Shown one piece after another: positions 3,978-53,296 of a stretch of 64,000 nucleotides of DNA (position 1 is its first letter; each line of letters opens with the position of its first letter). Made by a program: the position numbers and the translations under genes. A model generated the notes under the pieces. It was not told where the DNA came from. It ran no database searches and worked only from the letters and a program-made list of their open reading frames with translations. Origin of the DNA: an uncultured Gammaproteobacteria bacterium (lineage in GTDB: Bacteria > Patescibacteriota > Patescibacteriia > Magasanikbacterales > GWA2-37-8); the NCBI GenBank assembly GCA_964514995.1, contig CAZETA010000001.1, forward strand, positions 15,148 to 79,147, read 5' to 3'.

Positions 3978-3986
3978 ATTAATTCT

Positions 3987-6482: not shown

Positions 6483-6503
6483 GAATAATTAACAAATACA
6501 TAT

Positions 6504-7349
6504 ATGAAAAAATTATTTATTTTTTTAGGGGGAGTAGCAGTATTGCTGATTACCGTTGTCTTATTTAGAAAATTAGACAATACAGCACCGCCAATTTCTG
6601 ACAATAATCCGCCGCCAATTTTGGAAGATAATGTTGGTCTCGTAGTGGAAAATGTCCACACAAATGACTTACTTAGTTCACCGCTTAAAATCACCGGTTA
6701 TGTGAACGGTGGTGGGTGGGGCGGTTTTGAAGGTCAGGTAGGCACAGTCAGTCTTCAGGATAGTGCGGGTAATGAATTATATATTGAACCGCTCACGGCT
6801 ACGACTGAGTGGATGACAACCACGGTGCGTTTTGAAGCAAATTTGGAATACGTTACGCTTGATCAGTACGGTAAACTTATTTTTAGAAATGAAAACCCAA
6901 GCGGCGAGCCGTCTCGAGATAGAGAAGTGATGATAGAAGTACGACTAATACCCGCGGTCGGCATGTTAAAAGTGCAGTCTTATTTTAGTAACAGTCAGCT
7001 TGATCCGGAGGCAACTTGTGAAAAAGTTTTTCCAGTGGATAGGATTGTAGAAAAAACTAGCGCTGTAGGCAGGGTAGCTTTAGAAGAATTGTTAAAGGGG
7101 CCGAAGCAGATAGAAAAAGGTAAAGGTTATGAAACAAGTATCAACCCAGGAGTGCAAATAAATAGTCTTACAATTACAGGGGGTATAGCTAAGGTTGATT
7201 TCAATGACGCTTTGACTGCGGGAGTAGCCGGGTCATGTCGAGTGGGTATGATTCGTTTACAGATAGAGCAAACGCTCAAACAGTTCCCGACCGTAAAAAG
7301 TGTGGTGATTTCAGTAAACGGTAGAACAGAAGATATTTTACAGCCATGA
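6504..7349 (+). CDS. Membrane-anchored or secreted protein with a Gmad2 Ig-like segment and a GerMN-like C-terminal domain.
   Basis: N-terminal TM/signal segment (KKLFIFLGGVAVLLITVVLF). Motifs LKITGYVNGGGWGGFEGQV and C-terminal SCRVGMIRLQIEQTLKQFPTVKSVVISVNG. The stop overlaps the uvrC start by 4 nt. Confidence 0.45.
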   Translation: MKKLFIFLGGVAVLLITVVLFRKLDNTAPPISDNNPPPILEDNVGLVVENVHTNDLLSSPLKITGYVNGGGWGGFEGQVGTVSLQDSAGNELYIEPLTATTEWMTTTVRFEANLEYVTLDQYGKLIFRNENPSGEPSRDREVMIEVRLIPAVGMLKVQSYFSNSQLDPEATCEKVFPVDRIVEKTSAVGRVALEELLKGPKQIEKGKGYETSINPGVQINSLTITGGIAKVDFNDALTAGVAGSCRVGMIRLQIEQTLKQFPTVKSVVISVNGRTEDILQP

Positions 7350-8503
7350 GTCTGCAAGAAATAGCAAAACAATTTCCTTTAACCCCAGGGGTATATATCT
7401 GGCGAGATAAAAATCAAAAACCCCTGTATGTAGGCCGAGCAACTTCTTTGCGACGGCGGGTTTTGCAATACTTCAGAAAAGATATTGATCGGCGGATTGG
7501 TGAGATGGTTTCTTTGGCACAGTCGATTGAGTTTATTCAGACTGATACTGTCCTGGAAGCCATTATTCTGGAAGCAAACCTGATAAAGGAATATTGGCCA
7601 AAATACAATATTGAAGAGAAGGATGATAAGTCTTTTATTTTTTTTGTTATTCCGAAGACTGATTTTCCCAAGCCGTTTATGGTTCGGGGTAGAGAACTCA
7701 AAAATTTTCCAATTCCTGAAGATAGAGTATTTGGTCCTTACCAAAGTTATGCCACCCTAAAAACAGTGCTAAAAATTGTTCGTCGTATTTTCCCCTACAG
7801 CACCTGTAACCAAACAGGTAAAGCTTGTTTTGATTATCAAATCGGATTGTGTCCGGGAGTTTGTATGGGTGCTGTAAGTAAAAAAGATTATCAAAAAAAC
7901 ATCGCTAATTTATTGTTATTTTTCAGAGGCGAAAAAAATAAACTACTAAAGAAACTTTCCAAAGATAATCCTGAAGCCGCGTTGCATCTCAAACATATCC
8001 AGGATGTAAGTTTGATTTCCCGTGAAGATTTGAATATGAGCGGCAATTTTAATCGCATAGAAGGCTATGACATCTCGCATTTTGCGGGTAAGGAAGTATA
8101 TGGCTCAATGGTGGTTTTTACCAATGGCGAGCCTGATAATAAGGAATATAGATTGTTTAAGATAAAAACGGTGACTAATAACGACCTTGACGCGCTCAAG
8201 GAAATGCTCGAGCGCCGGCTGAAGCATACTGAATGGCCAAAGCCGGATTTAATCCTCATAGACGGTGGTAAGCCGCAGATAGACTATTTGCGCCCGCTCA
8301 TGGAGCAATATCAATTCAAGGCGCCATGGCTGGGACTGTCAAAATTAAATGGCGATCATTTGGTATTTCCTGCAGGAATAAAAAATGTGTTCAAAGACTT
8401 GGCAGAGACGATCAAGCGCACACTACAGCAGGTGCGGGATGAGGCACATCGGTTTGCTAATCGTGGGAGAAGCAGAGGATATTTTAATAGGAATTTAAGG
8501 TAG
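7346..8503 (+). CDS. uvrC: UvrC-like excinuclease subunit C. GIY-YIG plus RNase H-like endonuclease domain, with no C-terminal HhH.
   Basis: GVYIWRDKNQKPLYVGRATSLRRR is the GIY-YIG motif. IEGYDISHFAGKEVYGSMVVFTNGEPDNKEYRLFKIK matches the UvrC endonuclease domain. 385 aa with a clean stop. Confidence 0.75.
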   Translation: MSLQEIAKQFPLTPGVYIWRDKNQKPLYVGRATSLRRRVLQYFRKDIDRRIGEMVSLAQSIEFIQTDTVLEAIILEANLIKEYWPKYNIEEKDDKSFIFFVIPKTDFPKPFMVRGRELKNFPIPEDRVFGPYQSYATLKTVLKIVRRIFPYSTCNQTGKACFDYQIGLCPGVCMGAVSKKDYQKNIANLLLFFRGEKNKLLKKLSKDNPEAALHLKHIQDVSLISREDLNMSGNFNRIEGYDISHFAGKEVYGSMVVFTNGEPDNKEYRLFKIKTVTNNDLDALKEMLERRLKHTEWPKPDLILIDGGKPQIDYLRPLMEQYQFKAPWLGLSKLNGDHLVFPAGIKNVFKDLAETIKRTLQQVRDEAHRFANRGRSRGYFNRNLR

Positions 8504-8511
8504 CTCAGAGG

Positions 8512-8540
8512 TTGACAGGAGGTGTTTTTCAAGGTATAAA
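8512..8540 (+). promoter_or_regulatory. Candidate sigma70-like promoter.
   Basis: TTGACA (8512-8517), 17-nt spacer, TATAAA (8535-8540). Confidence 0.4.
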
Positions 8541-8656
8541 TTGTCGATGTTTGTTCTTTGTAATTGGGTTTTGTATATATGGGCTTGGAATTTTAGAATA
8601 TTTAATAAAATATTTTGAGATTCTTAGCTCATCTAACACAAAAGAAAAAGGTGCCA

Positions 8657-8941
8657 ATGGACGAATTTAGAGCAAAGCTTGTCGAACTCTTTCCCGAGTG
8701 GGAGGATGCCATCCGGATGTGCGATGCGGGTGATGTTCCGGGTCTCCGCACAGCTCTTCGTGATGCTACCTATCCAGGCGGTATGAGCGGCGACACCATG
8801 CTGAAAATGGTGGCAGCAGGCCATCCATATCGCGCTATTCGGGACGAGCACCTGCGAATCAAGGGGAAAGGCCCGCAGCTTGAGGCTTTGCGGAGGATGT
8901 TCGATGATCGTTTTCCGCCCCAATGGTCCTCCGGCTACTAG
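8657..8941 (+). CDS. Hypothetical 94-aa protein encoded in a GC-rich islet.
   Basis: aaaggtg RBS 5 nt upstream of the ATG. The ORF sequence is protein-like (MDEFRAKLVELFPEWEDAIRMCDAGDVPGLRTALRDATYPGG...). Local GC content is visibly far above the flanks. Confidence 0.35.
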   Translation: MDEFRAKLVELFPEWEDAIRMCDAGDVPGLRTALRDATYPGGMSGDTMLKMVAAGHPYRAIRDEHLRIKGKGPQLEALRRMFDDRFPPQWSSGY

Positions 8942-18682: not shown

Positions 18683-20776
18683 TTATTCAGGTTTCGGCCT
18701 AAAAATTCTTGATATCGGTTTTCTTACAAATTTTGTGCTGCAGTCTGCTGTGATACAAATCGCGCCGTAGACTACCTGTCCATCACTATATCTTTTGTTC
18801 GGATCAGTGGTTTGAAACTGCTGAACCTGGCCTTGAATCACTTGCGCTCTGCCGTCAGATAGCCATTTATCAAAAATCATGGCATGGTTGCCCCGACAAA
18901 CATCACCGTTTCCATTATATATCCAAAATGCATCTCCGGGCCTCATTTTTTTAATTGCTTCTGTTAGTTTAGTTTCGCTCAAGGTATACACTAGAGCGTC
19001 TAAGATTTTTTTAGTGGAGGCTGCCCTTGCATCGACACACTCTTTGCTTCTCTTGCCCTTATCTTTGCATGTTGTTTGGCAATCGGTCTGTTCTCGTGAC
19101 ATGCTATTTATATTGGTTGGCCAAGAGAAGATGGTTTCGGTATTTTCCTGTGTTTTACATCCGCCCTTTGTATACAGGCATGTTTTGGGATATTTAGGCG
19201 TTTCCACGCCGGCGAGAGAGAAAATCGTGCCAGCGGTTCTTCCGCAAGATCCAAATCGTACGCCACATTTTGCTGCAGCATCAGCTACTTGCAATATACG
19301 GTCTCCCGTTGTCTGGCCTGTAATAACAGTTTCGATTTTACTATAAAATTCAAGAGTACGAGCATCTTCATTCGGTGATTTTGCTTGCGCCTCAACAGGT
19401 AGGTCTAGAGTTATGGGGCAGGTAAGAAATTTAGGCGTCTCGTTTACGACTTCGTTTGCGTCTTCGGGCGATATAGTTTCCTCGGTAGTTTGCTGTATTT
19501 CGTTAAAGTCAGGCAAGTTTTTTCTTTCTACCACCTTCACCTTGAGCGCATTAAACTCGATAAGGTTAGGATTGACATTGTATAAGATTGCAAAAGAACC
19601 CCAGGCGATAACTAGGCCGATCAGGGCGTGTGTAATTTTTTTGTAGAATTCTTGGGTGCCTTCACCGCTAGCGCTAGATGTGATGATGCGTACCCCTGCT
19701 AAAATAATCATCACAACTGCCACAATACTGACTATTCCAATACCAAATTTGTATAGTGTAGAGATAAACTGAGCAATCCACGGAATAAGAATATATGTTC
19801 CGGTTTTGTCGCTTTTTATAAACGAGTCACTTAGTTTTAAGCCAGGAAAATTAATTTGCAGGAGGGGCTTTTTTGCGTTTATTTCGGCTAAAATAACTTC
19901 AAGCTTTGTCTTTGCAGACGTTTCTTCGGATTGTTGTTGACTGCAACCGTCGTTTATTAGATGGTCAAAAAAACAGAGTTCTGGTATTGCATAGTGATCT
20001 GCGGCAATCTTTGTGTAGGGTATCTTGGCGTTAGTGAGCTGGCTATAATAGTCTGCACCAAAACTTTTAATACTTGCGCCGTATCGATATGCGGACCTAA
20101 ATTCGTCTGAGTTGGATACATCTAACCCGTCTTTGTTTTCAGTATTAGGTTTTATGTAGATTCTTTTTTCACCGCTTGAATACGCGTTAATCTCGGAACA
20201 CCAGCTTGCCCAGCAGCCGTCAAATATCAGGATTTTTTCAGGGTTATAGTATTTCGCAAATTCTTTTACGATATTAGCGCCGGCCCCATGCCCAGCGACT
20301 GTTGAGATGGTTAAAGGGGAATTAAGCACTTTTGCATGCAGCGCAATTAACGCTTCCTGCAAGTATTTGTCAAATTTTTCTTTAGTAAATTCCTTTACGT
20401 GTAGTCCGTTACCCGCATCCATTTGAGGGATTAGAATGGCTATGTCTTCCTGTGCAGCACTGCGAAGGGAGACTTTACTACACCATTTAAATTCTTTGCA
20501 AACTGCTGCCGGGTCAATAATGTGACATTCTTTACAGGCGGGAGGATTTAGCCCGTGAAAAAAAAGATAAATTCGGTCTATTTTTTGGGCGTTTTTAGGA
20601 TAGATAATACCGTTTGTGCCATGTAAAAAGGCGGTTCCGTCAGTTGTTGTCGATTGGTAGGTATACAGAACGGCTCCATCAACTTCTTCTTCTGCGGCCC
20701 TGATTGAAGTAGGCAGTAAAAAAAACAGTGATGTAAAAAATAGCAGGAAAAATATTTTTTTTACGCCAATTTTCAT
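18683..20776 (-). CDS. Large secreted multidomain protein. It has a central TrbC/VirB2-like pilin segment and a C-terminal Cys/His (CHAP or NlpC/P60-like) putative hydrolase region.
   Basis: Signal peptide MKIGVKKIFFLLFFTSLFFLLPTSIRAAEE. Two-helix hairpin IVSIVAVVMIILAGVRIITSSASGEGTQEFYKKITHALIGLVIAWGSFAILY resembles the small protein at 52712. C-terminal FGSCGRTAG...GNHAMIFD Cys/His pair. Confidence 0.5.
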   Translation of the reverse strand: MKIGVKKIFFLLFFTSLFFLLPTSIRAAEEEVDGAVLYTYQSTTTDGTAFLHGTNGIIYPKNAQKIDRIYLFFHGLNPPACKECHIIDPAAVCKEFKWCSKVSLRSAAQEDIAILIPQMDAGNGLHVKEFTKEKFDKYLQEALIALHAKVLNSPLTISTVAGHGAGANIVKEFAKYYNPEKILIFDGCWASWCSEINAYSSGEKRIYIKPNTENKDGLDVSNSDEFRSAYRYGASIKSFGADYYSQLTNAKIPYTKIAADHYAIPELCFFDHLINDGCSQQQSEETSAKTKLEVILAEINAKKPLLQINFPGLKLSDSFIKSDKTGTYILIPWIAQFISTLYKFGIGIVSIVAVVMIILAGVRIITSSASGEGTQEFYKKITHALIGLVIAWGSFAILYNVNPNLIEFNALKVKVVERKNLPDFNEIQQTTEETISPEDANEVVNETPKFLTCPITLDLPVEAQAKSPNEDARTLEFYSKIETVITGQTTGDRILQVADAAAKCGVRFGSCGRTAGTIFSLAGVETPKYPKTCLYTKGGCKTQENTETIFSWPTNINSMSREQTDCQTTCKDKGKRSKECVDARAASTKKILDALVYTLSETKLTEAIKKMRPGDAFWIYNGNGDVCRGNHAMIFDKWLSDGRAQVIQGQVQQFQTTDPNKRYSDGQVVYGAICITADCSTKFVRKPISRIFRPKPE

Positions 20777-20777
20777 A

Positions 20778-21437
20778 TTATTTTTTTATGAACTGTGCCA
20801 GCATGTCGTTAAGATTGATGTCTTCACGAGTGTTAATCAGCTTGTTGTTTACAAAAATTATCGGCAATGCCCCCAAATCAAGACTTTTTTCAATCTGTAA
20901 GGACTCTTCGATTTTCTGTTTGGCTGCAGTGCCGTTTGCGCACTGCCAGATTTTTTCTGTATCAAGATTTAATCCCCGGGTCATATTGCTTATCTCAGAT
21001 TCGTTTAGGTTAGCCCTACTCTCGGCGGCAGCCTCTACAAACTGCCAAAATTTCTTTGTATCTTGTTGGGATATACACCAGCCAGCTCGGTTTGCTAAAT
21101 CAGAGTTTTTGGAAAATATTTTTTCTTTTGGAGCATCTTTCCAGATCAAGCGCATTTCTTGCGGATGTGTAGCTATGAATTCTTTAATTGCATTGTGAAA
21201 CGCCAAACACTGTCGACAGCTAAAGTCCATGAATTCTATAACAGTAATCGCCGCGCCAGGGTTGCCAAGGATAGGGTCGGTTTCAGAAATTGGTATGAAA
21301 GTACTCTTTTCGGAAATCAGAGGAGTCGGATTTCTTGTGACAGTAATTTCTTTGAAACGTTTGATCTGCGATAGGAATAATAAGCCGGCTAATGCGATCA
21401 GGGCGAATAAGAGAAGAAAAGTTTTTTTGTGTGGCAT
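20778..21437 (-). CDS. DsbA-like thiol:disulfide oxidoreductase (thioredoxin fold).
   Basis: N-terminal TM, CRQC active-site motif, thioredoxin-fold spacing. Confidence 0.65.
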   Translation of the reverse strand: MPHKKTFLLLFALIALAGLLFLSQIKRFKEITVTRNPTPLISEKSTFIPISETDPILGNPGAAITVIEFMDFSCRQCLAFHNAIKEFIATHPQEMRLIWKDAPKEKIFSKNSDLANRAGWCISQQDTKKFWQFVEAAAESRANLNESEISNMTRGLNLDTEKIWQCANGTAAKQKIEESLQIEKSLDLGALPIIFVNNKLINTREDINLNDMLAQFIKK

Positions 21438-21449
21438 ATAGAGCGAAGA

Positions 21450-22679
21450 TTACAGCTGTGATTCAAATACACCAGTCTTGTTTAAGTCGGTAAATATAAT
21501 TTTATTTTTTGCCGCATCGTAAAAAATATTACTTATATTGTAATCAGCGTTTAGACTGATCGGTGTTTTGGTGTTGGTTTTTAGATCGATTTTATATAGA
21601 CTGTCAGAGCTGTATCTGGCAACTTCACGGGAAAGACCCGCGCCAGTGGGCAGTTCGTTTGGTACGGCGCAATAAATCGTTTCATCATTTGCAAAAGTGC
21701 ATTTGTCAGCCCAAGTATTTAGTTGAAGCAGCTTGCGATTATCGCCGATACTGTCTCCGTAAGCATCGGTTAGCCATAATTCCGGTTTGAAGTCGCTGCG
21801 TGAATTGTAGACGCTGTAGAGTAGTTTTTTTCCAGAACTAGACCATTGAGGTGAAAATCCAGCTCCTTCGACGATGGCAGATTTGAAGTTTTCTCCGTTA
21901 AGACCGATAAAAAGAACTTCCCGTCGTTCACCGCCTTGCGGCTCTCCGGTTTGGGAGAATGCCACTACTTGCTGGCTAGGAGACCAGTTGATGATTACTT
22001 TATCGGCATTCTCGCCCATAGGCTCTATAAATTTTGCGCCTGTAAAATCAGTATTAGCCGTTATCAGCCATCTGCTTGATGGATCAAGGCCAAGACTTTT
22101 GGCTGCAATTTGATTGCCATCTCCGGAGAATGAGAAGTCTTGCCAATGCTTTGGCAAACTTACTTGTTTGTTTGTGTCAAAATTATATATTATTTTTGAA
22201 TTATCGGGATATTCAATCACTGCCTGGTTTTTATTTTTTGCCCAAGTTACTTTTTGGGCGTTATAAAAAACTTGATCAGACAATTGTTTGGTTTCACCGT
22301 TCGGGGTGATGCGGTAAAATTTACCATCATCTGCGCTGTAGTAGCGGAAATCACCGCCGTTACTGAGTGATGGATTGGTAGCTGTTTCGCTTAGAATTTG
22401 GTTAGTTTGTGACGGTTTGTAATAGGTAGGATTTTCTGATTGGATAATGCTTGAAACAGGCAGGAGTTCTCCGTTTGGACCCACCGCAGTGTTTACTGTG
22501 GAAGTGGTTTTTACTCCCGATTCAGGGAATTGGCCAGCGGTTGAAGAGGGAGGGTTTGCCCCATCTGTATTCTGTCCAATTTGCGAGGTTTTTATAAAGA
22601 AATAGTATAAGCCGTAACCTACCAAACCGGCAACGGTCAATAAAAGAATGGCCAAAAATACTCGTTTCGCTATAGACAT
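21450..22679 (-). CDS. Membrane-anchored WD40-like (PD40/TolB-like) beta-propeller protein.
   Basis: N-terminal TM. Repeated motifs of the YYSADDGKFYRI / LLYSVYNSRSDFKPELWLTDAYG type, typical of PD40 repeats. Confidence 0.5.
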   Translation of the reverse strand: MSIAKRVFLAILLLTVAGLVGYGLYYFFIKTSQIGQNTDGANPPSSTAGQFPESGVKTTSTVNTAVGPNGELLPVSSIIQSENPTYYKPSQTNQILSETATNPSLSNGGDFRYYSADDGKFYRITPNGETKQLSDQVFYNAQKVTWAKNKNQAVIEYPDNSKIIYNFDTNKQVSLPKHWQDFSFSGDGNQIAAKSLGLDPSSRWLITANTDFTGAKFIEPMGENADKVIINWSPSQQVVAFSQTGEPQGGERREVLFIGLNGENFKSAIVEGAGFSPQWSSSGKKLLYSVYNSRSDFKPELWLTDAYGDSIGDNRKLLQLNTWADKCTFANDETIYCAVPNELPTGAGLSREVARYSSDSLYKIDLKTNTKTPISLNADYNISNIFYDAAKNKIIFTDLNKTGVFESQL

Positions 22680-22770
22680 ATATATGCAAGTTAAGTCCTC
22701 ATGTATACCTATTATACCACAAAATTTCTACGGTTTATTCTCTCAGAGCCTATCTGTCTAATAATGGAAA

Positions 22771-23601
22771 TTACATTTGGATTTGTTTTTTTGCCGCAGC
22801 AAGTTTACTAAGTTGTTTTCCGATGTCGACTTTTTTCTGGAGCACTTTAATTTGATTTTGCCAGGCAAGTTTTTGCTTTTTAAGGTCCTCTATTAATTCA
22901 TTGACTTGTTGTGTGATACGGCCTTTGAAAAAAGGGATTTTTCCAATAAAATAAAATATTGCTAAGAATGGGGCGTATAGCGGCGATAGAACGACAGCAA
23001 TTATTGGAATAAAGATCGTTGGCAGTGTGAATAGAACTACGCGTATGAGGAAGATAAGTATATCTAGTACGGCTGCAAGTAGCTTCGCCCCCGTCAGTAC
23101 GCCGATAAGAGCGCTAATCGTCCCTATCAATTTCTCCAGAGCCTTCATTTTCGGTTCATCCGCTAAGTTTTTTGCTGTTTTTTTTAACTGGTCCACTATC
23201 TCCTCTATAAGAAAAGTTATTCTAGGCTGGAAGAAGCGAAATAAGCCTAGGGCGCCGCTTTTTCTCTTAAAATCAGTCAGGCTGCCCTCGAGTTCGTCTA
23301 ACTCTTTTTTCAATTGAGCTTCTTGTTGAGCGATTTGCGCCAGCTGGCGTTGTTTATTGTCTGACATTTGCCCCGCAATTTCTGCCTCCGCTTCAGGAGG
23401 TATTTTGTTTGGTTCCCCCGCTTGGACAATTTTAGGCGAGCTGTTGTTCCAAAAAGCAACGTCGCTTATCCAGGGAGTTTTTATGGTTTGATTGTTTTGA
23501 CCCGAGACTCTTTGTCCGCCAGCTGATAACGCCTGTTCGCGAACTAAAGAGTCGCGAATTTCGGCGTCGGTATTTGTGGGCAAAGACTGGCTATTTGCCA
23601 T
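22771..23601 (-). CDS. Coiled-coil protein with two C-terminal TM helices. Unknown function.
   Basis: Gln/Lys-rich coiled coil and a hydrophobic hairpin. Confidence 0.4.
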   Translation of the reverse strand: MANSQSLPTNTDAEIRDSLVREQALSAGGQRVSGQNNQTIKTPWISDVAFWNNSSPKIVQAGEPNKIPPEAEAEIAGQMSDNKQRQLAQIAQQEAQLKKELDELEGSLTDFKRKSGALGLFRFFQPRITFLIEEIVDQLKKTAKNLADEPKMKALEKLIGTISALIGVLTGAKLLAAVLDILIFLIRVVLFTLPTIFIPIIAVVLSPLYAPFLAIFYFIGKIPFFKGRITQQVNELIEDLKKQKLAWQNQIKVLQKKVDIGKQLSKLAAAKKQIQM

Positions 23602-41950: not shown

Positions 41951-42199
41951 TTGATGACCATGCCTTAGGTTGCCCTAAAGTTTAGGTCGCTAATTGTACC
42001 GACTTATAAAAGTCGATTTCATTTTAACATACAGGAAAAATAAAGCCAATGTAGCGATATGCACAAGCTACAATCGACTCTAAACCGACGAAATCGATGC
42101 CGTATATCGTCGATTAGTGTAAACATAGAGAAATTTACTTGCTGAGATTAATAGTTTGAGTTATGGTAAGCTTAATTCAGCTTTTCTATAATTAAATTA

Positions 42200-43114
42200 G
42201 TGCGATTTATGAAAAAGATTAGAGTTTGTTATAGAAGTAATAATAAGATCACTCCTTTATTTATAATAGGCTACTACTCAGATGGCGGATTTTTTATTAA
42301 GGATTTAATAAAAAGTTACGGTGAGAATTATCTAGTATCGAAAACCTCTATTCCGAGAAATTTAAAACCTGCTGAATTTACTAATTCCAAAATTAATAAA
42401 AAAAATACTTGGCACACAAGTTTTATTAAGCCAAAGTTTTCACATCATGGTAATGGGTTTGCTCAGATATCTGAAACCGGTCTCAGGAGTGGTGTTTTTA
42501 AGACGGTAGGATTTTTTAAAGGGGTTGCTATTAAGAGTATAAATTTATTTTTACGCAATAACGATGGCGGCCCTCTTTACGCATTTAATATTTGGGGTCT
42601 TGATAATATGGAGTTTAACCAAGATGTAAAAGGGGACGATATCATCTTAGATGACGCGGACTTTTTTGATTTTAGGCCTCCTTATACAAATACTCCAGGT
42701 TGTTTTATATTCGAATTTTTCTATCTTCCTAATCAAGCAAAAGGTCACATAAATAAAGATGGTAGAATATGGCTTCGTTGGGACGGGTATGGTGACTATA
42801 TTGCCAGGTATATACCTGAAGAGGAGTATAGTCCAGGGTTTCTAGCAATCTCATGTAAAAAAGATGTGCTCGGGAGTGGGTTTAATCAATGGCCGTTTGG
42901 TCTATCTATGAGCGGTTGTCCGGGGTTTCCTCGTCTATTAGATTTTTTTCGTTCTTATAAGCAAATAAATGTTATCTACCCTGTACGATCTTTTGGTAGT
43001 GAAGTACCTTTTAATGCGAGAGAATTATTATTTACAAAGTTTTGGCACACAGTTTCTATTCTAGATGATCGAGTTTCAAAAATAATTAATGCATTGGTTG
43101 CAAAAATTAAATAG
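42200..43114 (+). CDS. Hypothetical protein (304 aa), island gene.
   Basis: Clean ORF with a TATAAT box about 15 nt upstream. No recognisable motif. Very AT-rich codon usage. Confidence 0.45.
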   Translation: MRFMKKIRVCYRSNNKITPLFIIGYYSDGGFFIKDLIKSYGENYLVSKTSIPRNLKPAEFTNSKINKKNTWHTSFIKPKFSHHGNGFAQISETGLRSGVFKTVGFFKGVAIKSINLFLRNNDGGPLYAFNIWGLDNMEFNQDVKGDDIILDDADFFDFRPPYTNTPGCFIFEFFYLPNQAKGHINKDGRIWLRWDGYGDYIARYIPEEEYSPGFLAISCKKDVLGSGFNQWPFGLSMSGCPGFPRLLDFFRSYKQINVIYPVRSFGSEVPFNARELLFTKFWHTVSILDDRVSKIINALVAKIK

Positions 43115-43123
43115 TTTTATAAT

Positions 43124-44071
43124 ATGCAATTGTCTATTCGGTATATAGATACGAACATTAAAAGGTATGATGGCTTTCATAAAGGCACCTCTTCTTTATG
43201 GGGTGTAAGATTAGCGAAAGGTTACGGGGTATTACCTATAAAGCACGAGCATGATCTAAATCCACAAAATAAAAATTTTGATTATTCTGATAAACAGATT
43301 GCACTAGCAAAAAATATCAGAATAGGTTTATATCAAAGAATACTACAGCCAGATGATATAAAGAAAGCGTTGTATTATAGTCCAGTTACTCTAGAATTTG
43401 AAATATTTAGTTCTATATATACCGACCACGACGGTGTAATTTCTATGCCAGATCTTGAGGAGGATAAAAAAGAAGAATTAGCACACGCTGTTATGGTATA
43501 TGGACACGATAAGAATGGCTATAAGATATTCAATCATTGGGCTAATTGGGGCAATAATGGTAAGGGGTATGTTTCCTTAGATTATTTAAAAAAGTACTTT
43601 ATTACGGCATTTGCATCTGATCTTGTGATAAAGATGCATGACACTCGTTTATGTTTAGAAAAGAAAAAGGTCAGGATAAAAAACCTAGACTATTACTTTT
43701 CATTTTATGAGACCCCTTCTTTTTTGGGTGACCATAAACCTATTTTTAATATTGAGATTTCTGATAGTAAAAATGAATTAGCGGGTTGGATACATTTTAT
43801 ATTTAACAATGACAGTGTAGAAATTTTAGACATTTTTGTTCTAGCTGAGTTTAGACATAATGGGCTTGGTTCTTTTTTGCTAAATAAGATGATTGAATAT
43901 ACAAAGCCTAAAAATGTTACTGGTTTCATTTCCGGCTATGATCTAGTAAATGATAGAGATGAGATTGTAAAGGATTTCCTAATAAAGAATGGTTTTACAA
44001 TAGCCCGTGATACTAGTGGATTTAGGGATTGTAAATATAAAATTTTAAAAATAGATAATTGTAAATGGTAG
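43124..44071 (+). CDS. Fusion of an N-terminal papain-like (C1-like) domain with a C-terminal GNAT acetyltransferase fold.
   Basis: HAVMVYGHDKNGYKIFNHWANWGNNGKGYVSLDY matches the C1 His / Asn-Ser-Trp-Gly..Trp-Gly..Gly-Tyr region. The N-terminal KGTSSLWGV sits where QGxCGSCWAF is expected, but without Cys. C-terminal FRHNGLGSFLLNKM is a GNAT motif A. Confidence 0.5.
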   Translation: MQLSIRYIDTNIKRYDGFHKGTSSLWGVRLAKGYGVLPIKHEHDLNPQNKNFDYSDKQIALAKNIRIGLYQRILQPDDIKKALYYSPVTLEFEIFSSIYTDHDGVISMPDLEEDKKEELAHAVMVYGHDKNGYKIFNHWANWGNNGKGYVSLDYLKKYFITAFASDLVIKMHDTRLCLEKKKVRIKNLDYYFSFYETPSFLGDHKPIFNIEISDSKNELAGWIHFIFNNDSVEILDIFVLAEFRHNGLGSFLLNKMIEYTKPKNVTGFISGYDLVNDRDEIVKDFLIKNGFTIARDTSGFRDCKYKILKIDNCKW

Positions 44072-48544: not shown

Positions 48545-49243
48545 ATGCGTCTGTTATTAGTAGAAGACGAAGAAAATATTGCGATGCCGCTGCGTACCGG
48601 TCTTGAGGCTGAATGTTTTGTTATTGATGTGGCTGCTGATGGAGAGCGGGGTTCATTTTTGGCTCGTACCAATGAGTATGATGTGATTATTTTGGACAAC
48701 ATGTTGCCGAAAAAAAACGGTAGGTTGATTTGTCAAGAAATACGCCAAGATGGGAAGACCGTGCCAATCCTGATCCTGTCTGTTTTAAACGAGGTTGATA
48801 CCAAAGTAGATCTTCTAAATGCGGGCGCTGATGACTATCTCACAAAACCGTTTTCATTCACTGAATTATTAGCGCGAGTTCGGGCGTTGTTGCGACGTCA
48901 GTCCCACATTACTGAAGAAGTGCTCAAAATTGGAGATATCATTCTGGAAGTGCAGGCCCATCGCGTGAAGCGGGGAGAGCGAGAAATTTATTTAACCAGA
49001 AAAGAATTCATCTTGCTTGAATATTTTATGCGAAATCCGGGTGTAGTTTTGTCGCGCGGTAAAATTATGGAACATGTATGGGATATCAATGCCGACCCAT
49101 TCTCTAATACGATTGAAGCGCATATCCGTAGTCTTCGCCAGAAGCTCCAGCTGTCGCGTGACAGTAAGTGCATTCAGACTATTCCGGGTCGCGGTTATCG
49201 GATTGAGTGGCTGTCAACGATAGCTGTTTCGAATAAAGTATAG
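48545..49243 (+). CDS. OmpR-family two-component response regulator.
   Basis: Receiver domain (MRLLLVEDEENIA ... DVIILDNMLP ... K) and a C-terminal winged-helix trans_reg_C domain. Confidence 0.8.
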   Translation: MRLLLVEDEENIAMPLRTGLEAECFVIDVAADGERGSFLARTNEYDVIILDNMLPKKNGRLICQEIRQDGKTVPILILSVLNEVDTKVDLLNAGADDYLTKPFSFTELLARVRALLRRQSHITEEVLKIGDIILEVQAHRVKRGEREIYLTRKEFILLEYFMRNPGVVLSRGKIMEHVWDINADPFSNTIEAHIRSLRQKLQLSRDSKCIQTIPGRGYRIEWLSTIAVSNKV

Positions 49244-49555
49244 TAGGTAATTTGAAATTTATTTTATAATTTTTTTAACTTTTCTTTATTTCCATCCTGC
49301 TATCATATACGCCATAGTCTTGTATAAAAGTCGAAGACTGTTATGTACTATATCGTATATGGCATATATGAAAAAAATGATTGAAGAAATTTTGTTGCAC
49401 AGGGAGGCTCGTGATGCTCAGTACCTCACGACGCTGGTTGCGCACGAAGTGCACGTCGGAGATCCTTGGTTTGGTTGATTTGAACAGGCTGTGTAATGGC
49501 CGCAGTCGCTCTTAGAAGGGCAAGTGTGGGAGGGAGAGGCAATTCATTGAGTATG

Positions 49556-51010
49556 CAACATATTAAGAATTGGCTTTACCAGCTTGTACGTCCGAGAGCG
49601 ACTGAAGAGGATGTGGCGCGTCGAGAATTTATTTTGAATATATTATTGAGCGGTTCAATTGTTTTAATATTTTGTGTTACCATCCTTAATGGGGTTCACG
49701 GATTAGTTGTCACTGACAGGGATAGCTTTGAGAGGAATTCTCTCTCTTTTTTCCTCTTATTTCTAACCTTATTATTTTTTCTACTTCTCTATTTTTTATC
49801 ACGTCGAGGTTTTATCCGTACGGCTTCCTCATTGCTTTTGACCGGCTATCTTATCCTAGCGGCTTTGATGGGGTATAAATGGGGAGTTGATCTGCAGGCG
49901 GAAATTCTCTTATTCGTACTCGTAATTGTGATGACAGGAATTTTAATGAGTGCTCAGGCGGCGGTTTTTCTTACCCTTGGCATTGCGATATTTTTGTTTG
50001 GACTTAATTATCTTCAACGGGCTCAGTTTGTAATTACTAGTCGTGAGTGGCGTACAAATATGTGGGGGCCGGTTGAGGTGTTAGTAACCGTCTTGATTTT
50101 TGGGGTTATTACCACAGTATCATGGCTCTCTAATCGTGAAATTGGTAGGGCGCTTGGCAGGGCACGTCATTCTGAGAGTGAGTTAAAAAAAGAACGTGAT
50201 TTACTGGAGGTAAAAATAGAGGAGCGCACTCAAGAGCTGAAATTAGCTCAAATGGAAAAAATGACGCAACTATATAGATTTGCCGAATTTGGACGGCTTT
50301 CTTCAGGGTTATTTCATGATTTGACTAATCATTTGAGTGCGCTGTTATTAAATGTTGAGCAAATTCAGTCACAAGCATCTGAGTTAGAGCCGGCAGCAGC
50401 ATGTTTGAATCAGGCGAGGAGAGCGAGTGACAGAATGAAGGATTTTATTGTGGCGATTCGTAAGCAAATGGCGGGCGAGCAGTCGATTGCTGCGTTTTCT
50501 GTAAACGAAGAAATTGAAGAAGTGCTGCAGGTGCTTTCGTATAAGGCTCGCCAGCATAATGTTGCTTTTAAATTTGATTTTTCCGAGCTGGTTTGTATTA
50601 CCGGCGATCGGACTAAATGCAGCCAAATCATCATCAATCTGGTCGCTAATGCTATTGATGCGTACGTGGGGCGTCCAAATCTTGATAGTCGAGTTGTGTC
50701 CGTTGTTTTGAATCGCACCGATACGGAAATTCTCCTGAGAGTAACTGATAAAGGTGTGGGCATTCCAGAATCATTGCGAGCTAAAATTTTTGAACCTTTT
50801 TTTACTACCAAAGAATTTTCTCGCGGTACCGGTCTTGGTTTGTCTTTATCAAAAAGAATTATTGAGAAAGATTTTTCAGGCACTATTACTGTAGAAAGTG
50901 AAGAAGGGCTATACACAACTTTTTCTGTCACTTTTCCTCTCGCGCTGTATGTCGAACAAAAAATTACTTACCCAACAACTGCTGTTTCTCAAACAACAGC
51001 AGCAGGCTGA
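49556..51010 (+). CDS. Sensor histidine kinase with a multi-TM N-terminal sensor region.
   Basis: H-box LSSGLFHDLTNHLSAL, and N, G1, G2 boxes (NLVANAIDA, DKGVGIP, GTGLGLSLS). Start placed at MQHIK, which has a gggagggagagg SD upstream. The track start at 49496 lacks an RBS. Confidence 0.75.
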   Translation, partial: QHIKNWLYQLVRPRATEEDVARREFILNILLSGSIVLIFCVTILNGVHGLVVTDRDSFERNSLSFFLLFLTLLFFLLLYFLSRRGFIRTASSLLLTGYLILAALMGYKWGVDLQAEILLFVLVIVMTGILMSAQAAVFLTLGIAIFLFGLNYLQRAQFVITSREWRTNMWGPVEVLVTVLIFGVITTVSWLSNREIGRALGRARHSESELKKERDLLEVKIEERTQELKLAQMEKMTQLYRFAEFGRLSSGLFHDLTNHLSALLLNVEQIQSQASELEPAAACLNQARRASDRMKDFIVAIRKQMAGEQSIAAFSVNEEIEEVLQVLSYKARQHNVAFKFDFSELVCITGDRTKCSQIIINLVANAIDAYVGRPNLDSRVVSVVLNRTDTEILLRVTDKGVGIPESLRAKIFEPFFTTKEFSRGTGLGLSLSKRIIEKDFSGTITVESEEGLYTTFSVTFPLALYVEQKITYPTTAVSQTTAAG

Positions 51011-51026
51011 CGGATCTTTTTTTGAT

Positions 51027-52628
51027 ATGACTGGAGTGCCGTCGCTACTTGCCACTGCTCTTATTCTAGATGCCTTAGCTATTGTACCTGACGAACCGTT
51101 ACTCGCAGAAATAAAAGATAAAGCAGCCCGGTATTTGTTAAGCGCCAAAAATTCAGATTGGATTTTTCCTGTGCCCCTAGGCACAACCTGTATAATCCTT
51201 GCGGCTTTGACAAAGTACAATCGTGAGCTTGTCGAAGGGAGGGCTTTGGCAAATTTGTTACTAACGCTTACGGGCCATGAAGTCCAGGAAGGTGGGCCCT
51301 ATAAGACGAATATATTAGTAAGTTTGGTCGGCCAGGAGAGTCTACCACCAATTGATGTTGGCGCTAATGCGGCAATCGGTTATTTTTTGGCAGGCCAGAG
51401 CGTGCGCTTACCGCAACTTTCAGCCTTTATTGACCAAGCGCAACTGCATAATAAATTTGAGTCAAATGAGTTTGGTGCGACGTTAGTTCAACGACTCGTC
51501 TCTAAGGTATCTGGTAGACCTGCCAGACTTCAGTCCCAGACAAGTGGATTGGAGCAAACGCCAGCGGTAGCCATGGCCTGGGCAATAGAGGACAGTGGTG
51601 TTGCGACAATCCCGCTGGTAGAAAATATAGTCCCAGACATAGCCGAAGCACAGATGTTTGAGCTTATAAAACAAGAAGCTCGGGGGCGTTTTTCAGTTTT
51701 GGCAGACGAGCTACAACAGTTGGCTTTGGGGCAATTAGAAAAAAGCGTTGCTGGCAATAGTAATAAACAAATGTCGCTCATGCCGTTTTATTTTCGAGAA
51801 GCGTTGGGTGAAAAAGGTAAGATGTTTTCGGATGTATATATTGCTCGACTGGGACTAGCAAATATTTTATTTTGGACAGCTTTTATTATCTACGATGATT
51901 TTTGGGATAAGGACGAAGCTGCCTTGCCTCATTTATTGCCCACAGCCAATGTGTATGCTCGTGAATTTATTAAATTTTTCACAGAGATTTTAGCGCCCGC
52001 CTCTGGCTTGCAAGCTTTTTTTCATGCCCTAATGGACAAGTTAGACGCAGCCAATACTTGGGAAACTTTGCATTGTCGCACAGCTGTAGCCGATAGTTTT
52101 TTTAAGCGACCCTTTTGTTTGCCAGAGTTTGACGATTATGAGAAAAAATACGAACCAGCTTCAGCCCATATACTTGGTTCGGTAGTATTATTTTACCAGC
52201 TTGGATTTCCTATTGGTTCAGAGGAGATGAATGCGCTAATTAGTTATTTTAGAAACTACCTTATTCCCATGCAGATAAATGATGATCTGCATGATTGGCA
52301 GGAGGACATGACTCGAGGGCATCTAAGTACGGTAGTAACTATGTTGTTAGAAGATTTGGGGTCTGACCGGGAACAGATTGATTTAGTAAACGACATGGCA
52401 GAGTTGGAATATATGTTTTGGTCTAAGACATTGCCACGAGCTGGCGCGCTAGCTCATAACTATCTTGATAAGGCTCGCACTGCCTTGTATAGTTTATCTA
52501 TCATCGAGAATCGAGCGCCTCTAGAAAGATTTATTATCGGTATTGAACAATCAATCGACGCGGCTTTGAAAGAAAGGGATTTGGTTAGCGATTTTTTAAA
52601 ATATTTTGAAGTTTCGCGGCCACGATAA
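51027..52628 (+). CDS. Isoprenoid synthase-like protein (trans-IPPS / class I terpene synthase fold) with an N-terminal alpha/alpha-toroid-like region.
   Basis: Two Asp-rich motifs 132 aa apart: FIIYDDFWDKD and MQINDDLHDWQED (compare LIHDDIMD / FQIQDDILD of polyprenyl synthases; the second also fits an NSE/DTE-like pattern). N-terminal DGSFFD...TALILDALAIV repeat-like segment. Start uncertain (ATG at 51027 or 50949). Confidence 0.4.
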   Translation: MTGVPSLLATALILDALAIVPDEPLLAEIKDKAARYLLSAKNSDWIFPVPLGTTCIILAALTKYNRELVEGRALANLLLTLTGHEVQEGGPYKTNILVSLVGQESLPPIDVGANAAIGYFLAGQSVRLPQLSAFIDQAQLHNKFESNEFGATLVQRLVSKVSGRPARLQSQTSGLEQTPAVAMAWAIEDSGVATIPLVENIVPDIAEAQMFELIKQEARGRFSVLADELQQLALGQLEKSVAGNSNKQMSLMPFYFREALGEKGKMFSDVYIARLGLANILFWTAFIIYDDFWDKDEAALPHLLPTANVYAREFIKFFTEILAPASGLQAFFHALMDKLDAANTWETLHCRTAVADSFFKRPFCLPEFDDYEKKYEPASAHILGSVVLFYQLGFPIGSEEMNALISYFRNYLIPMQINDDLHDWQEDMTRGHLSTVVTMLLEDLGSDREQIDLVNDMAELEYMFWSKTLPRAGALAHNYLDKARTALYSLSIIENRAPLERFIIGIEQSIDAALKERDLVSDFLKYFEVSRPR

Positions 52629-52711: not shown

Positions 52712-53296
52712 ATGCAGAATATAAATAATAAGAATATGTTATATCAATGGCAAAAGATTATGGTAGGTATCTTTATTGGTCTGGTGCTTGTCGGTTTTTC
52801 CATTCCTCAATTTAGCCAGGCTCAAGAAGTAGAAACAACAACTAATCCCAATGTGCTAGAAGCGACTCCTCAAAATGTTTCCAATACGGATTTTGATGGG
52901 GCGCAACCAAACGCAGTAGAGCCAACGGCAGGTTCTGCTGGTCCTAGTATTATGAAAAACTTGCAGTTTTTCGGCGATCTATTAGGGATGAAAGCGACTG
53001 ATCCTCGTGCTATTTTAGCGCGACTAGTTAAGTCGGCTTTGAGTCTTCTGGGTATTATTGTGCTTGTCTTGATTTTATGGAGTGGTCTTAAATATATGAC
53101 GGCTGGCGGTGATGAGGAGCGGGCAAAAAATGCTCGAAGTACTTTTGTGAATACGCTTATTGGTCTGTTTATTATTCTAGCGGCTTACAGTATTGTTAAT
53201 TTTGTTTTCGGTGCCCTAACGGGCGCAATCGTGCCTATTGATAATAATAGCGCTCCAGTAAGCCCGGCAAATCCTGACCCTGTAGTTAATCCGTAG
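52712..53296 (+). CDS. TrbC/VirB2-like pilin-domain protein (signal/TM, a soluble segment, then a two-helix membrane hairpin).
   Basis: LLGIIVLVLILWSGLKYMTAGGDEERAKNARSTFVNTLIGLFIILAAYSIVNFVF has the same helix - G..E/D..K - helix pattern as the hairpin in the 18683-20776 protein. Confidence 0.5.
   Translation: MQNINNKNMLYQWQKIMVGIFIGLVLVGFSIPQFSQAQEVETTTNPNVLEATPQNVSNTDFDGAQPNAVEPTAGSAGPSIMKNLQFFGDLLGMKATDPRAILARLVKSALSLLGIIVLVLILWSGLKYMTAGGDEERAKNARSTFVNTLIGLFIILAAYSIVNFVFGALTGAIVPIDNNSAPVSPANPDPVVNP

Follow-up and report, generated by a model that had tools for sequence, protein, structure and literature searches.

ComQ is a tryptophan (Trp) prenyltransferase of the isoprenyl diphosphate synthase (IPPS) superfamily, whereby ComX, ComP, and ComA are encoded alongside the enzyme (PMC4008528). 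The PalP-PalX-PalQ system of Paenibacillus alvei (Miyata et al., 2023; PMC10853753) consists of a histidine kinase, a precursor peptide ending in Trp, and a Trp prenyltransferase with an isoprenoid-synthase fold, PalQ (UniProt K4ZRG6), the earlier annotation of which was terpene synthase. An equivalent enzyme-peptide pair, StheQ/StheX, is known from the Chloroflexi (Sphaerobacter thermophilus; bioRxiv 10.64898/2026.08.29.745113). All three characterized peptide-modifying enzymes of the superfamily alkylate Trp (PMC4008528; PMC10853753; bioRxiv 10.64898/2026.08.29.745113).

Here, we analyzed a 64-kb stretch of patescibacterial DNA (hereafter the window), which carries a comparable set of genes at positions 48545-52628, all on the same strand and in the order regulator, peptide, kinase, and enzyme (Table 1). 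This set agrees with the definition of comQXPA loci by Dogsa et al. (2014; PMC4008528) in that an enzyme, a short precursor, a membrane kinase, and a regulator are encoded by four neighboring genes of one strand. The order is A-X-P-Q here and Q-X-P-A in comQXPA. A response regulator belongs to the cassette, unlike in PalP-PalX-PalQ as described (PMC10853753). By analogy with these systems, we consider the chances to be about even that the enzyme is the peptide-modifying member of a ComQXPA/PalPXQ-like, four-gene signaling cassette and would prenylate the Trp of the peptide. Most likely, such a cassette would both produce and detect a peptide signal that bears a lipid, as does the ComX pheromone system of Bacillus.

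Table 1. Positions of the cassette features within the window
Feature	Position	Strand	Description
OmpR-family response regulator	48545..49243	+	receiver plus winged-helix; Pfam Response_reg 7e-25, Trans_reg_C 3e-25
Leader motif AAAGTCGA	49327..49334	+	window copy of the conserved (T)ATAAAGGTCGR motif (TATAAAGGTCGR), upstream of the peptide gene
Small peptide gene, unannotated	49368..49478	+	between regulator and kinase; 36 aa, MKKMIEEILLHREARDAQYLTTLVAHEVHVGDPWFG
Polytopic membrane histidine kinase	49496..51010	+	Pfam HATPase_c 1e-23; alternative start 49553
Enzyme, N-terminal alpha/alpha-toroid domain	50949..51596	+	aa 1-216
Enzyme, C-terminal trans-IPPS-fold domain	51639..52628	+	aa 231-559 plus stop
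First Asp-rich motif FIIYDDFWDKD	51882..51914	+	aa 312-322; D316, D317, D320
Second Asp-rich motif MQINDDLHDWQED	52269..52307	+	aa 441-453; Q442, N444, D445, D446, D449, D453

Organization and conservation of the cassette

An initial sequence-only reading had recognized a two-component system directly upstream of the enzyme gene, which was borne out by the analysis (Table 1). The kinase has about six transmembrane segments with short loops, four of which are strong 19-residue hydropathy peaks, whereas two further ones were read from the sequence. Its H-box is FHDLTNHL (His274) and its catalytic core is a generic, AtoS/ZraS-like core of the HisKA type. A kinship to AgrC-type or ComP-type kinases was checked but not found. 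ComP is a HisKA_3 kinase and ComA a GerE-type regulator, whereas no HisKA_3 domain (PF07730) was detected in the window kinase and the regulator is of the Trans_reg_C/OmpR type and not of the GerE type (PF00196). The two proteins are no orthologues of ComP and ComA, which weighs against a prenylation system of the ComQXPA kind.

The open reading frame of the enzyme spans 50898..52628 (+) in the window, with ATG 50949 as the preferred start and a stop at 52628. The NCBI annotation (P0001, 533 aa) starts at 51027, as did the sequence-only reading. This start removes an N-terminal “QQxDGSF” segment that is conserved in the homologue alignment; homology supports ATG 50949 as the probable true start. 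The latter overlaps the kinase stop (51010) by 62 nt, and all enzyme residues are numbered from it. The same reading had taken the genome to be AT-rich, which holds in a mild form only, as the GC content is 40-45%.

The core order peptide, polytopic kinase, and enzyme is conserved, with the regulator upstream on the same strand in most loci; it is not adjacent in L027 and L068, and in L048 and L049 it is encoded on the other strand. In 55 of 60 loci from GTDB species representatives, the gene that ends where the enzyme gene begins encodes an orthologous kinase (E 1e-76 to 1e-212), and in six further contexts the kinase is always located directly upstream of the enzyme as well. The peptide gene lies between regulator and kinase in 61 of the 62 evaluable loci, and the genes flanking the cassette are otherwise unrelated between loci. 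This comparison shows a tight genetic linkage of the enzyme to a polytopic histidine kinase and a 34-40-aa, single-Trp peptide. The family profile of the enzyme has matches in about 1,600 clusters at 50% identity, and all named carriers are patescibacterial MAGs, apart from a few doubtful titles.

In most loci, the kinase stop and the enzyme start overlap, and in at least two lineages both genes are fused in frame (junctions ...RNK[LF]-MDNP... in P0004 and P0121; a separate fusion in P0040). Such fusions were absent from the three comQXPA loci examined and were not found described for the characterized systems compared. They would equally suit a protein that serves as a regulatory partner of the kinase. 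According to this explanation, which we consider rather unlikely, the enzyme-like protein binds a prenyl diphosphate (e.g., FPP or undecaprenyl-PP) in its Asp-rich pocket and informs the kinase about the isoprenoid or envelope precursor status, whereby the peptide is embedded in the membrane as a co-factor of the kinase, the way MgrB and similar small proteins act on other kinases. Besides the fusions, the overlapping genes are in line with this idea, as is the fact that the cassette neighborhoods contain no conserved exporter or protease, which at the same time speaks against peptide prenylation. On the other hand, the complete catalytic-type residue set is strictly conserved over the roughly 1,600 clusters. 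In the clade of L038 and L039, the enzyme occurs without kinase, regulator, or peptide nearby, and this orphan copy is intact. The missing kinase argues against a regulatory partner, the missing peptide against the modification of a neighboring peptide.

The small Trp peptide and its leader region

The peptide encoded in the window contains a single Trp (W34), which is located two residues from the C-terminus. The 61 loci yielded 54 distinct sequences of 34-40 aa, and all of them (54/54) contain one Trp and no more, at a distance of 1-6 residues from the C-terminus. Residues L9, R15, and W34 are invariant, Pro directly precedes the Trp in 50 of the 54 sequences, and a conserved Gly is found three residues ahead of it. 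The N-terminus forms a conserved helix, M-x-K-L-I-K-E-I-L-T-N-K-x-x-R. The differences per codon position (0.46/0.24/0.62) constitute a coding signature, and the reading frame shows 0 internal stops versus 195 and 109 in the other two frames. Five of eight peptides that were looked up are missing from the protein collection, including those of the window and of Minisyncoccus.

Like ComX, the putative precursor is short and has its Trp near the C-terminus, whereas its length of 34-40 aa differs from the 52-73 aa of ComX, which belongs to PF05952 and carries the Trp within the last 5-10 residues (PMC4008528). No Pfam family, including the ComX family PF05952, matched the peptides, which counts against the prenylation of a ComX-like substrate. 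An HMM of the peptide family scored only 1-2 bits against real ComX, with a likeness of ten N-terminal residues to ComX MQDLINYFLS. PalX is described as an NHLP-type precursor, which is cleaved near residue 72 and has Trp as its very last residue (PMC10853753); in comparison, the peptides studied here represent a new family, are shorter, and have their Trp slightly inside the C-terminus. The alignment shows that, at the sequence level, the single Trp is the sole invariant C-terminal feature of the family, and the peptide is a candidate substrate and pro-signal of the enzyme. The sequence-only reading had overlooked the peptide gene between regulator and kinase; with this gene, peptide prenylation becomes the most likely function of the enzyme.

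A hydrophobic middle was found in 27 of the 54 peptides, whereas 11 contain no hydrophobic stretch. The hydrophobic middle could simply be a membrane anchor, which speaks against a prenylated signal, and it would also fit a membrane-embedded co-factor of a kinase that is partnered by the enzyme-like protein. However, peptides with a polar middle, which occur in Saccharimonadia-like lineages, still carry the Trp, and therefore it is not merely a membrane-interface residue. This argues against the regulatory partner, and so does the finding that the universal C-terminal feature of the peptide is precisely the residue that is prenylated by known enzymes of this fold.

A (T)ATAAAGGTCGR motif precedes the ATG of the peptide gene by 28-84 nt in 27 of 54 loci, as compared to 0.07 expected occurrences per 200 nt. 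The leader region of the window (49300-49372) has a folding energy of -20.9 kcal/mol (z -3.6). There was no Rfam match for the leader or the cassette, and a sigma-70/terminator scan of the cassette yielded nothing above background. The motif may belong to an RNA element, be a site for a regulator, or represent a promoter/transcription-start region.

Fold and active site of the enzyme

The C-terminal domain displays the all-alpha fold of trans-isoprenyl diphosphate synthases. Both Asp-rich motifs are placed at C-terminal helix ends, the first one at that of helix 295-319 and the second one at that of helix 425-455. These are the fourth and eighth long helices of the domain, the places of FARM and SARM. 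Hence, the two DDxxD motifs that the sequence-only reading had pointed out are indeed found on helices D and H of an isoprenoid-synthase fold and are kept across homologues. They correspond to the patterns DDxx(xx)D (D316-D317-x-x-D320) and (F)QxxDDxxD (Q442-x-x-D445-D446-x-x-D449), and the second is followed by RGHLST. Their spacing, initially given as 132 residues, is corrected to 129 from first Asp to first Asp, compared to 127 in IspB and 139 in IspA of E. coli. In shuffled versions of the protein, at least two DDxxD motifs arose in just 117 of 20,000 cases. Residues D316, D320, D445, D446, and D449 are invariant in 43 homologues (37-48% identity). The retrieved loci comprise 65 distinct homologues, 63 of which have DDxxD as their second motif, whereas contig ends truncate the remaining two. 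In 61 of these 63, the position of the first motif was readable; it is DDxxD in about 57 of them, DNFWD in three, and degenerate in one. Taken together, fold and motifs show that the enzyme has an active-site scaffold of the Mg2+/prenyl-diphosphate type.

The N-terminal half had been suspected to be toroid-like, and an alpha/alpha-toroid fold was indeed found. It contains the invariant residues E111 and G115-G116-P117-Y118 (inside EGGPY, aa 114-118), and part of the domain is absent from many homologues. DxDD was found neither by direct reading of aa 1-228 nor among the conserved columns of the homologue alignment, and a class II cyclase function of the domain was ruled out on these motif grounds. 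Roles like those of LanC or the protein-prenyltransferase beta subunit were set aside because the invariant toroid columns include no Cys or His.

At the level of families, the enzyme did not match PF00348 or any terpene-synthase Pfam even at E <= 10. Searches of Pfam, NCBIfam, and PDB with the single sequence and with profiles revealed nothing beyond a sub-threshold SQHop_cyclase_C repeat (18.2 bits versus a cut-off of 26.1), and the enzyme family profile did not match any PDB sequence. The HMM scan for polyprenyl synthase, terpene synthase, and SQHop families that had been suggested as a check of the initial assignment gave no family match above the gathering score. In hhalign comparisons, the enzyme family aligned with a seven-sequence IPPS alignment at E 0.0045 (probability 8%) and with ComQ at E 0.094, both alignments being colinear, low-stringency local, and non-significant; therefore, we do not claim sequence-level homology to either. 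This lack of significant similarity to ComQ or IPPS also speaks against prenylation. Against the single IspA and IspB sequences of E. coli, only short motif matches were obtained, and an alignment of the family with IspA was spurious, since it pairs the first motif with the SARM of IspA. At the GGKRxRP position of IPPS, the colinear alignment shows GNxDKQMSL, a register that is provisional because the alignment is weak.

Compared to trans-IPPS of PF00348 (IspA, IspB, solanesyl-PP synthase 9jqs), the enzyme lacks significant sequence similarity as well as the basic residues of the IPP site (GGKRxR before helix C, RRG after FARM), has a deletion of about 11 residues after the SARM, carries the additional N-terminal toroid, and is found in a signaling instead of a biosynthetic operon context. 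In 62 of 63 homologues, the 12 residues that follow the first motif contain no RR, and RRG is missing from the window enzyme. Ord1 and MoeN5, all-alpha prenyltransferases with non-IPP small-molecule acceptors from biosynthetic clusters, are structurally no closer to it than ordinary synthases. Judged by its sequence, the protein is no recognizable member of the polyprenyl synthase family, and the comparison shows it to be devoid of the sequence hallmarks of chain elongation.

These data bear on the possibility of a genuine isoprenoid-biosynthetic enzyme, i.e., a divergent prenyl-diphosphate synthase or two-domain terpene synthase, the lipid product of which is controlled or sensed by the two-component system, with the peptide being unrelated. 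The initially noted isoprenoid-synthase likeness holds at the fold level, whereas the missing Pfam match and RRG, as well as canonical PF00348 synthase genes next to the enzyme gene in five loci, make a free-standing terpene or prenyl-diphosphate synthase unlikely. The supposed fit of the second motif to the NSE/DTE pattern, (N,D)D(L,I,V)x(S,T)xxxE, did not stand up either, and a class I terpene synthase/cyclase was rejected, as both this motif and the family Pfam match are missing. Furthermore, the missing GGKRxR-type IPP site and an N-terminal domain that has no DxDD and is partly absent in many homologues argue against biosynthesis, which would also leave the peptide-kinase-enzyme linkage and the invariant Trp unexplained. 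Overall, we regard this possibility as quite improbable.

Like the enzyme of the window (IIYDDFWDKD), ComQ (DIMDDLEDED) lacks RRG and has acidic residues behind its DDxxD. In contrast, ComQ is a single-domain protein of about 300 aa without a toroid, and PF00348 was found in all real ComQ proteins checked, whereas the window enzyme comprises two domains and 559 aa and has no PF00348 domain. ComQ carries a pseudo-SARM, NDxxx, with Asn in place of the first Asp, which is the Okada/Matsui criterion; the window enzyme has the full DDxxD instead, and its Asn444 is located one residue ahead of the position of that Asn. StheQ, compared by description, likewise has a pseudo-SARM with an essential Asn215, and its peptide StheX has 69 aa and comes from a different phylum (bioRxiv 10.64898/2026.08.29.745113). 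PalQ has both FARM and SARM and a Gln three residues before the SARM, and its pattern Q197/D200/D204 is matched by Q442/D445/D449 (PMC10853753). As PalQ demonstrates, an enzyme with a full SARM can prenylate Trp; a toroid is not mentioned for it in the available part of that report (PMC10853753).

The residue ahead of the second motif is Asn (N444) in 54 of 63 homologues and varies outside the core clade, being Ser in Minisyncoccus. Together with the invariant L9 and R15 of the peptide, this could hint at a modification other than Trp prenylation, either of another residue or by diphosphate-dependent chemistry other than alkylation. However, L9 and R15 sit in the N-terminal helix, which resembles a recognition leader, and enzymes of this fold use neither of them as a nucleophile; as all three characterized enzymes alkylate Trp, we regard such a modification as highly improbable.

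For Trp prenylation, it is conceivable that the enzyme binds the conserved N-terminal helix of the peptide, by analogy with ComQ/ComX, PalQ/PalX, and StheQ/StheX, ionizes a short allylic diphosphate, and alkylates the indole of the C-terminal Trp. Phe312, four residues ahead of the first DDxxD, suggests a donor length of C5-C15. The donor might be supplied by a canonical prenyl synthase that is encoded next door in some lineages; PF00348 synthase genes adjoin the cassette in five related loci (L059, L064, L066, L069, and L072). In the 64-kb window, no MEP, mevalonate, IPPS, or UppS gene was found, and the missing donor-pathway genes weigh against prenylation. Through its six-helix membrane domain, the kinase would then sense the lipidated peptide, which may be cut behind the conserved Gly, and would signal via the OmpR-type regulator, perhaps with feedback onto the cassette. 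Such a signal may act between cells, in quorum or partner sensing, or on the producing cell only.

Implications for the Candidate Phyla Radiation

The Candidate Phyla Radiation (CPR) forms an extensive group of very small, mostly uncultured bacteria that depend on hosts, and Patescibacteria are thought of as signaling-poor episymbionts. We know of no description of cell-cell communication in the CPR, and no prior description of a ComQ/ComX-like, prenyl-peptide system in Patescibacteria/CPR was found in the literature. We tentatively propose that the cells may use the cassette to sense cell-cell or symbiont-host density, as a lipopeptide pheromone system that would be conserved by vertical descent throughout the phylum and assembled independently of ComQXPA, although we would sooner doubt than assert this. 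Its parts would be a deeply divergent IPPS-fold enzyme with a toroid, a new Trp-peptide family, a six-helix kinase, and an OmpR-type regulator. There is a cultured carrier, Minisyncoccus archaeiphilus PMX.108, whose cassette is found on the reverse strand of NZ_AP038758.1 within 284318-297805 (locus L052, positions ~3560-7540) and whose peptide contains GQPWC; therefore, this reading of the cassette is directly testable.

If it is true, it would be the first peptide-pheromone-type signaling system that we found proposed for the CPR. The “terpene or polyprenyl synthase” label would be a mis-annotation, which wrongly credits reduced genomes with extra isoprenoid biosynthesis, and the conserved small peptide gene is one that annotation pipelines often miss. 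The enzyme would stand beside ComQ, PalQ, and StheQ as a fourth branch, structurally distinct from these, of peptide Trp prenyltransferases with an isoprenoid-synthase fold, and would be of interest for RiPP enzymology and as a source of peptide lipidation tools.

Enzyme gene, motifs and family

The open reading frame claimed by the sequence-only reading exists at 50898..52628 (+) and has ATG codons in frame at 50949 and 51027. Its proposed start, 51027, is identical to the NCBI call (P0001, 533 aa), but homology favours ATG 50949, since homologues keep the conserved upstream "QQxDGSF" segment; the public 533-aa annotation drops 26 conserved N-terminal residues (window 50949-51027). From 50949, the gene overlaps the kinase stop by 62 nt; in most relatives this junction is an overlap of only a few nt or a gap of at most ~20 nt. 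The association with a two-component system was borne out, the two genes upstream encoding a response regulator and a histidine kinase (Table). Both Asp-rich motifs (FARM and SARM) are present, although their first Asp residues lie 129 and not 132 residues apart; the corresponding distance in E. coli is 127 residues for IspB and 139 for IspA, and the chance of two DDxxD motifs is 0.6%, as judged from shuffled versions of the protein.

The only Pfam match was an SQHop_cyclase_C repeat below threshold (aa 4-70); of the other families suggested earlier, polyprenyl_synt (PF00348) and terpene synthase gave none even at E <= 10. NCBIfam and PDB sequence searches gave no matches. The family is large, with 218 matches in a word-indexed search and, in an exhaustive profile search, 1,601 clusters (50% identity) at E <= 1e-3 and 1,088 at E <= 1e-30, and carries only "hypothetical" annotation. 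With real synthases it aligned colinearly but statistically weakly in hhalign (E 0.0045), whereby FARM pairs with FARM, SARM with SARM, and GGKRxRP of the synthases with GNxDKQMSL. By its fold the enzyme belongs to the IPPS superfamily, but IPP-site hallmarks are missing. Five loci have a canonical PF00348 gene (E 1e-38 to 1e-54) directly adjoining the enzyme gene or its cassette, as against a rough estimate of ~0.1-0.2 expected by chance among 54 loci. L064, L066, L069 and L072 are Saccharimonadia-like, and the five adjacencies stem from at least two independent arrangements. Because of these neighbours we argue that the enzyme uses rather than makes prenyl diphosphates; together with the absence of RR(G) behind the first motif in 62 of 63 homologues, they speak against the ordinary prenyl synthase that the motifs had called to mind.

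Coordinates of features in the window and of canonical synthase genes in related loci (L numbers)
Feature	Position	Strand	Remark
ORF, 697 aa	18683-20776	-	no Pfam match
DsbA-like thioredoxin	20778-21437		between large no-Pfam ORFs
ORF, 409 aa	21450-22679	-	no Pfam match
ORF, 276 aa	22771-23601	-	no Pfam match
ORF in low-GC patch	42200-43114		no Pfam match
GNAT acetyltransferase in low-GC patch	43124-44071		
OmpR-type response regulator	48545-49243		directly 5' of the gap holding the peptide gene
(T)ATAAAGGTCGR motif	49327-49334		loop of inverted repeat AGTCTT...AAGACT
Peptide gene	49368..49478		unannotated; encodes MKKMIEEILLHREARDAQYLTTLVAHEVHVGDPWFG
Histidine kinase	49496-51010		polytopic, about 6 transmembrane segments
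FARM, FIIYDDFWDKD	aa 312-322 from 50949		
SARM, MQINDDLHDWQED	aa 441-453 from 50949		
T4SS-pilin-like (TrbC/VirB2-type) small membrane protein	52712-53296		84 nt downstream of enzyme gene
"23S rRNA intervening sequence protein", 130 aa	62141-62533		PF05635, E 1e-36; directly after infB
L059 PF00348 synthase	3371-4387		between regulator and peptide gene; more distant locus
L064 PF00348 synthase	6272-7309	-	convergent
L066 PF00348 synthase	7854-8891	-	convergent
L069 PF00348 synthase	7653-8711		immediately downstream of enzyme gene
L072 PF00348 synthase	7857-8921		immediately downstream of enzyme gene

The peptide gene and its leader

Of the 62 evaluable loci, 61 have a small ORF in the 200-400-nt regulator-kinase gap. 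In L014, the locus of the relative closest to the window among those with upstream DNA (enzyme 59% identical), this ORF (~2800-2860) ends early (MQKIIQEILSRKGARDTAYLA, then stop) and appears frameshifted, representing either an assembly frameshift or a decayed copy. The 54 distinct peptides comprise 34-40 aa with the consensus M-x-K-L-I-K-E-I-L-T-N-K-x-x-R-N...G-x-P-W-x(1-6), in which L9, R15 and the Trp never vary. A single Trp occurs in each peptide, 1-6 residues before the end, and in 50 of 54 it follows a Pro. The three codon positions show differences of 0.46, 0.24 and 0.62, and the peptide frame contains 0 stops compared to 195 and 109 in the other two. No Pfam match, ComX (PF05952) included, was obtained for the peptides; of eight looked up in the protein collection, five were missing, among them those of the window (either start) and of Minisyncoccus, and the others are annotated "hypothetical". 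Of the 54, 27 have a hydrophobic middle segment and 11 a polar one; the peptides with a polar middle retain the Trp. The initial idea of a genuine lipid-producing enzyme controlled by the two-component system is improbable, as it explains the invariant Trp less economically than Trp prenylation does.

In 27 of 54 loci, the (T)ATAAAGGTCGR motif is conserved 28-84 nt 5' of the peptide gene (background 0.07 per 200 nt); it may act as a promoter/transcription start, as a regulator site or as an RNA element. The 73-nt leader (window 49300-49372) folds with -20.9 kcal/mol (z -3.6), and the sequence surrounding the ATG is paired in this fold; no Rfam match was found for it.

Conservation and spread of the cassette

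In all six contexts first examined, the regulator-kinase-enzyme order was kept with differing flanks, and none had a pilin-family gene after the enzyme gene. A scan with one genome per GTDB species yielded 60 loci, essentially all from Patescibacteria (Paceibacteria, Magasanik-, Falkow-, Morani- and Doudnabacteria, Saccharimonadia), including the cultured Minisyncoccus archaeiphilus PMX.108. In 55 of them the enzyme gene begins where an orthologue of the window kinase (E 1e-76 to 1e-212) ends; of the remaining five, three end at contig edges, and one Paceibacteria clade (L038, L039) truly lacks the kinase. There, a solitary intact enzyme gene with both motifs (L039, 5995-7710) is flanked by recA on one side and a type I restriction-modification system on the other, with no kinase, regulator or peptide gene within 6 kb. 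The peptide-kinase-enzyme unit is intact despite a relocated regulator in L048, L049 and L068.

At least two lineages encode kinase and enzyme as one in-frame fusion (P0004, L001/L002 2-2362; P0040; P0121), and the junction ...FP[IV]RNK[LF]-MDNP... is shared by P0004 and P0121, so that this fusion is a clade feature and not a one-off assembly error. Fusions and hydrophobic peptides would both suit a role as a regulatory kinase partner that binds prenyl diphosphate; we consider this role rather unlikely, since Trp prenylation accounts more economically for the invariant Trp.

The titles of several carrier MAGs read "uncultured Gammaproteobacteria", "Bacteriovoracaceae", "Omnitrophota" or "Pacearchaeota" (L013, L014, L024-L026, L033, L037, L042 and others). 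The gene content of these MAGs looks patescibacterial, and so, in the case of OZ246416.1, does its 886-kb chromosome; the titles are probably wrong. Elsewhere in the window, three successive large ORFs without Pfam match, interleaved with the DsbA-like thioredoxin, occupy 18683-23601 (- strand), and GC content is 0.33 at 42001-44000 versus ~0.42 elsewhere.

Likeness to peptide-prenylating systems

A short Trp-ended peptide, polytopic kinase, response regulator and IPPS-superfamily enzyme make up the ComQXPA architecture, which is also that of StheQ/StheX (bioRxiv 10.64898/2026.08.29.745113) and PalP-PalX-PalQ (PMC10853753). ComQ (PMC4008528), PalQ and StheQ all prenylate the Trp of their peptide. 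PalQ was likewise formerly annotated as terpene synthase and keeps FARM, SARM and a Gln three residues before SARM, as does the window enzyme (Q442/D445/D449); it is the closest logical precedent.

Real ComQXPA loci were fetched for comparison. By the published criteria (PMC4008528) the cassette is not a ComQXPA family member: the enzyme has neither PF00348 nor a pseudo-SARM, HisKA_3 is absent from the kinase, the regulator belongs to the OmpR type instead of the GerE type, and the peptide is shorter than ComX and lacks PF05952. The hhalign comparison of the enzyme family with ComQ was non-significant (E 0.094).

From the shared architecture we propose that the cassette works like these systems, as an independent or extremely diverged assembly. 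The enzyme would prenylate Trp34 of the peptide in a Mg2+-dependent manner, and the kinase membrane domain would then sense the prenylated lipopeptide. A short-chain donor is suggested by Phe312, which lies four residues ahead of FARM. What the data show is the fold, the motifs, the gene linkage and the peptide; we infer the substrate and the donor length, as well as export, autoregulation and a processing step behind the conserved Gly. Peptide modification by another chemistry would explain the invariant Trp less economically than Trp prenylation and seems very improbable.

A 2014 census found ComQXPA-like loci confined to Firmicutes, with none in other phyla (PMC4008528), and a 2026 preprint extended ComQ-like pairs to Chloroflexi (bioRxiv 10.64898/2026.08.29.745113); no literature linking such systems or the enzyme's family to Patescibacteria was found. 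The interest of the cassette lies in its phylum-wide occurrence and in its being amenable to testing in a cultured strain.
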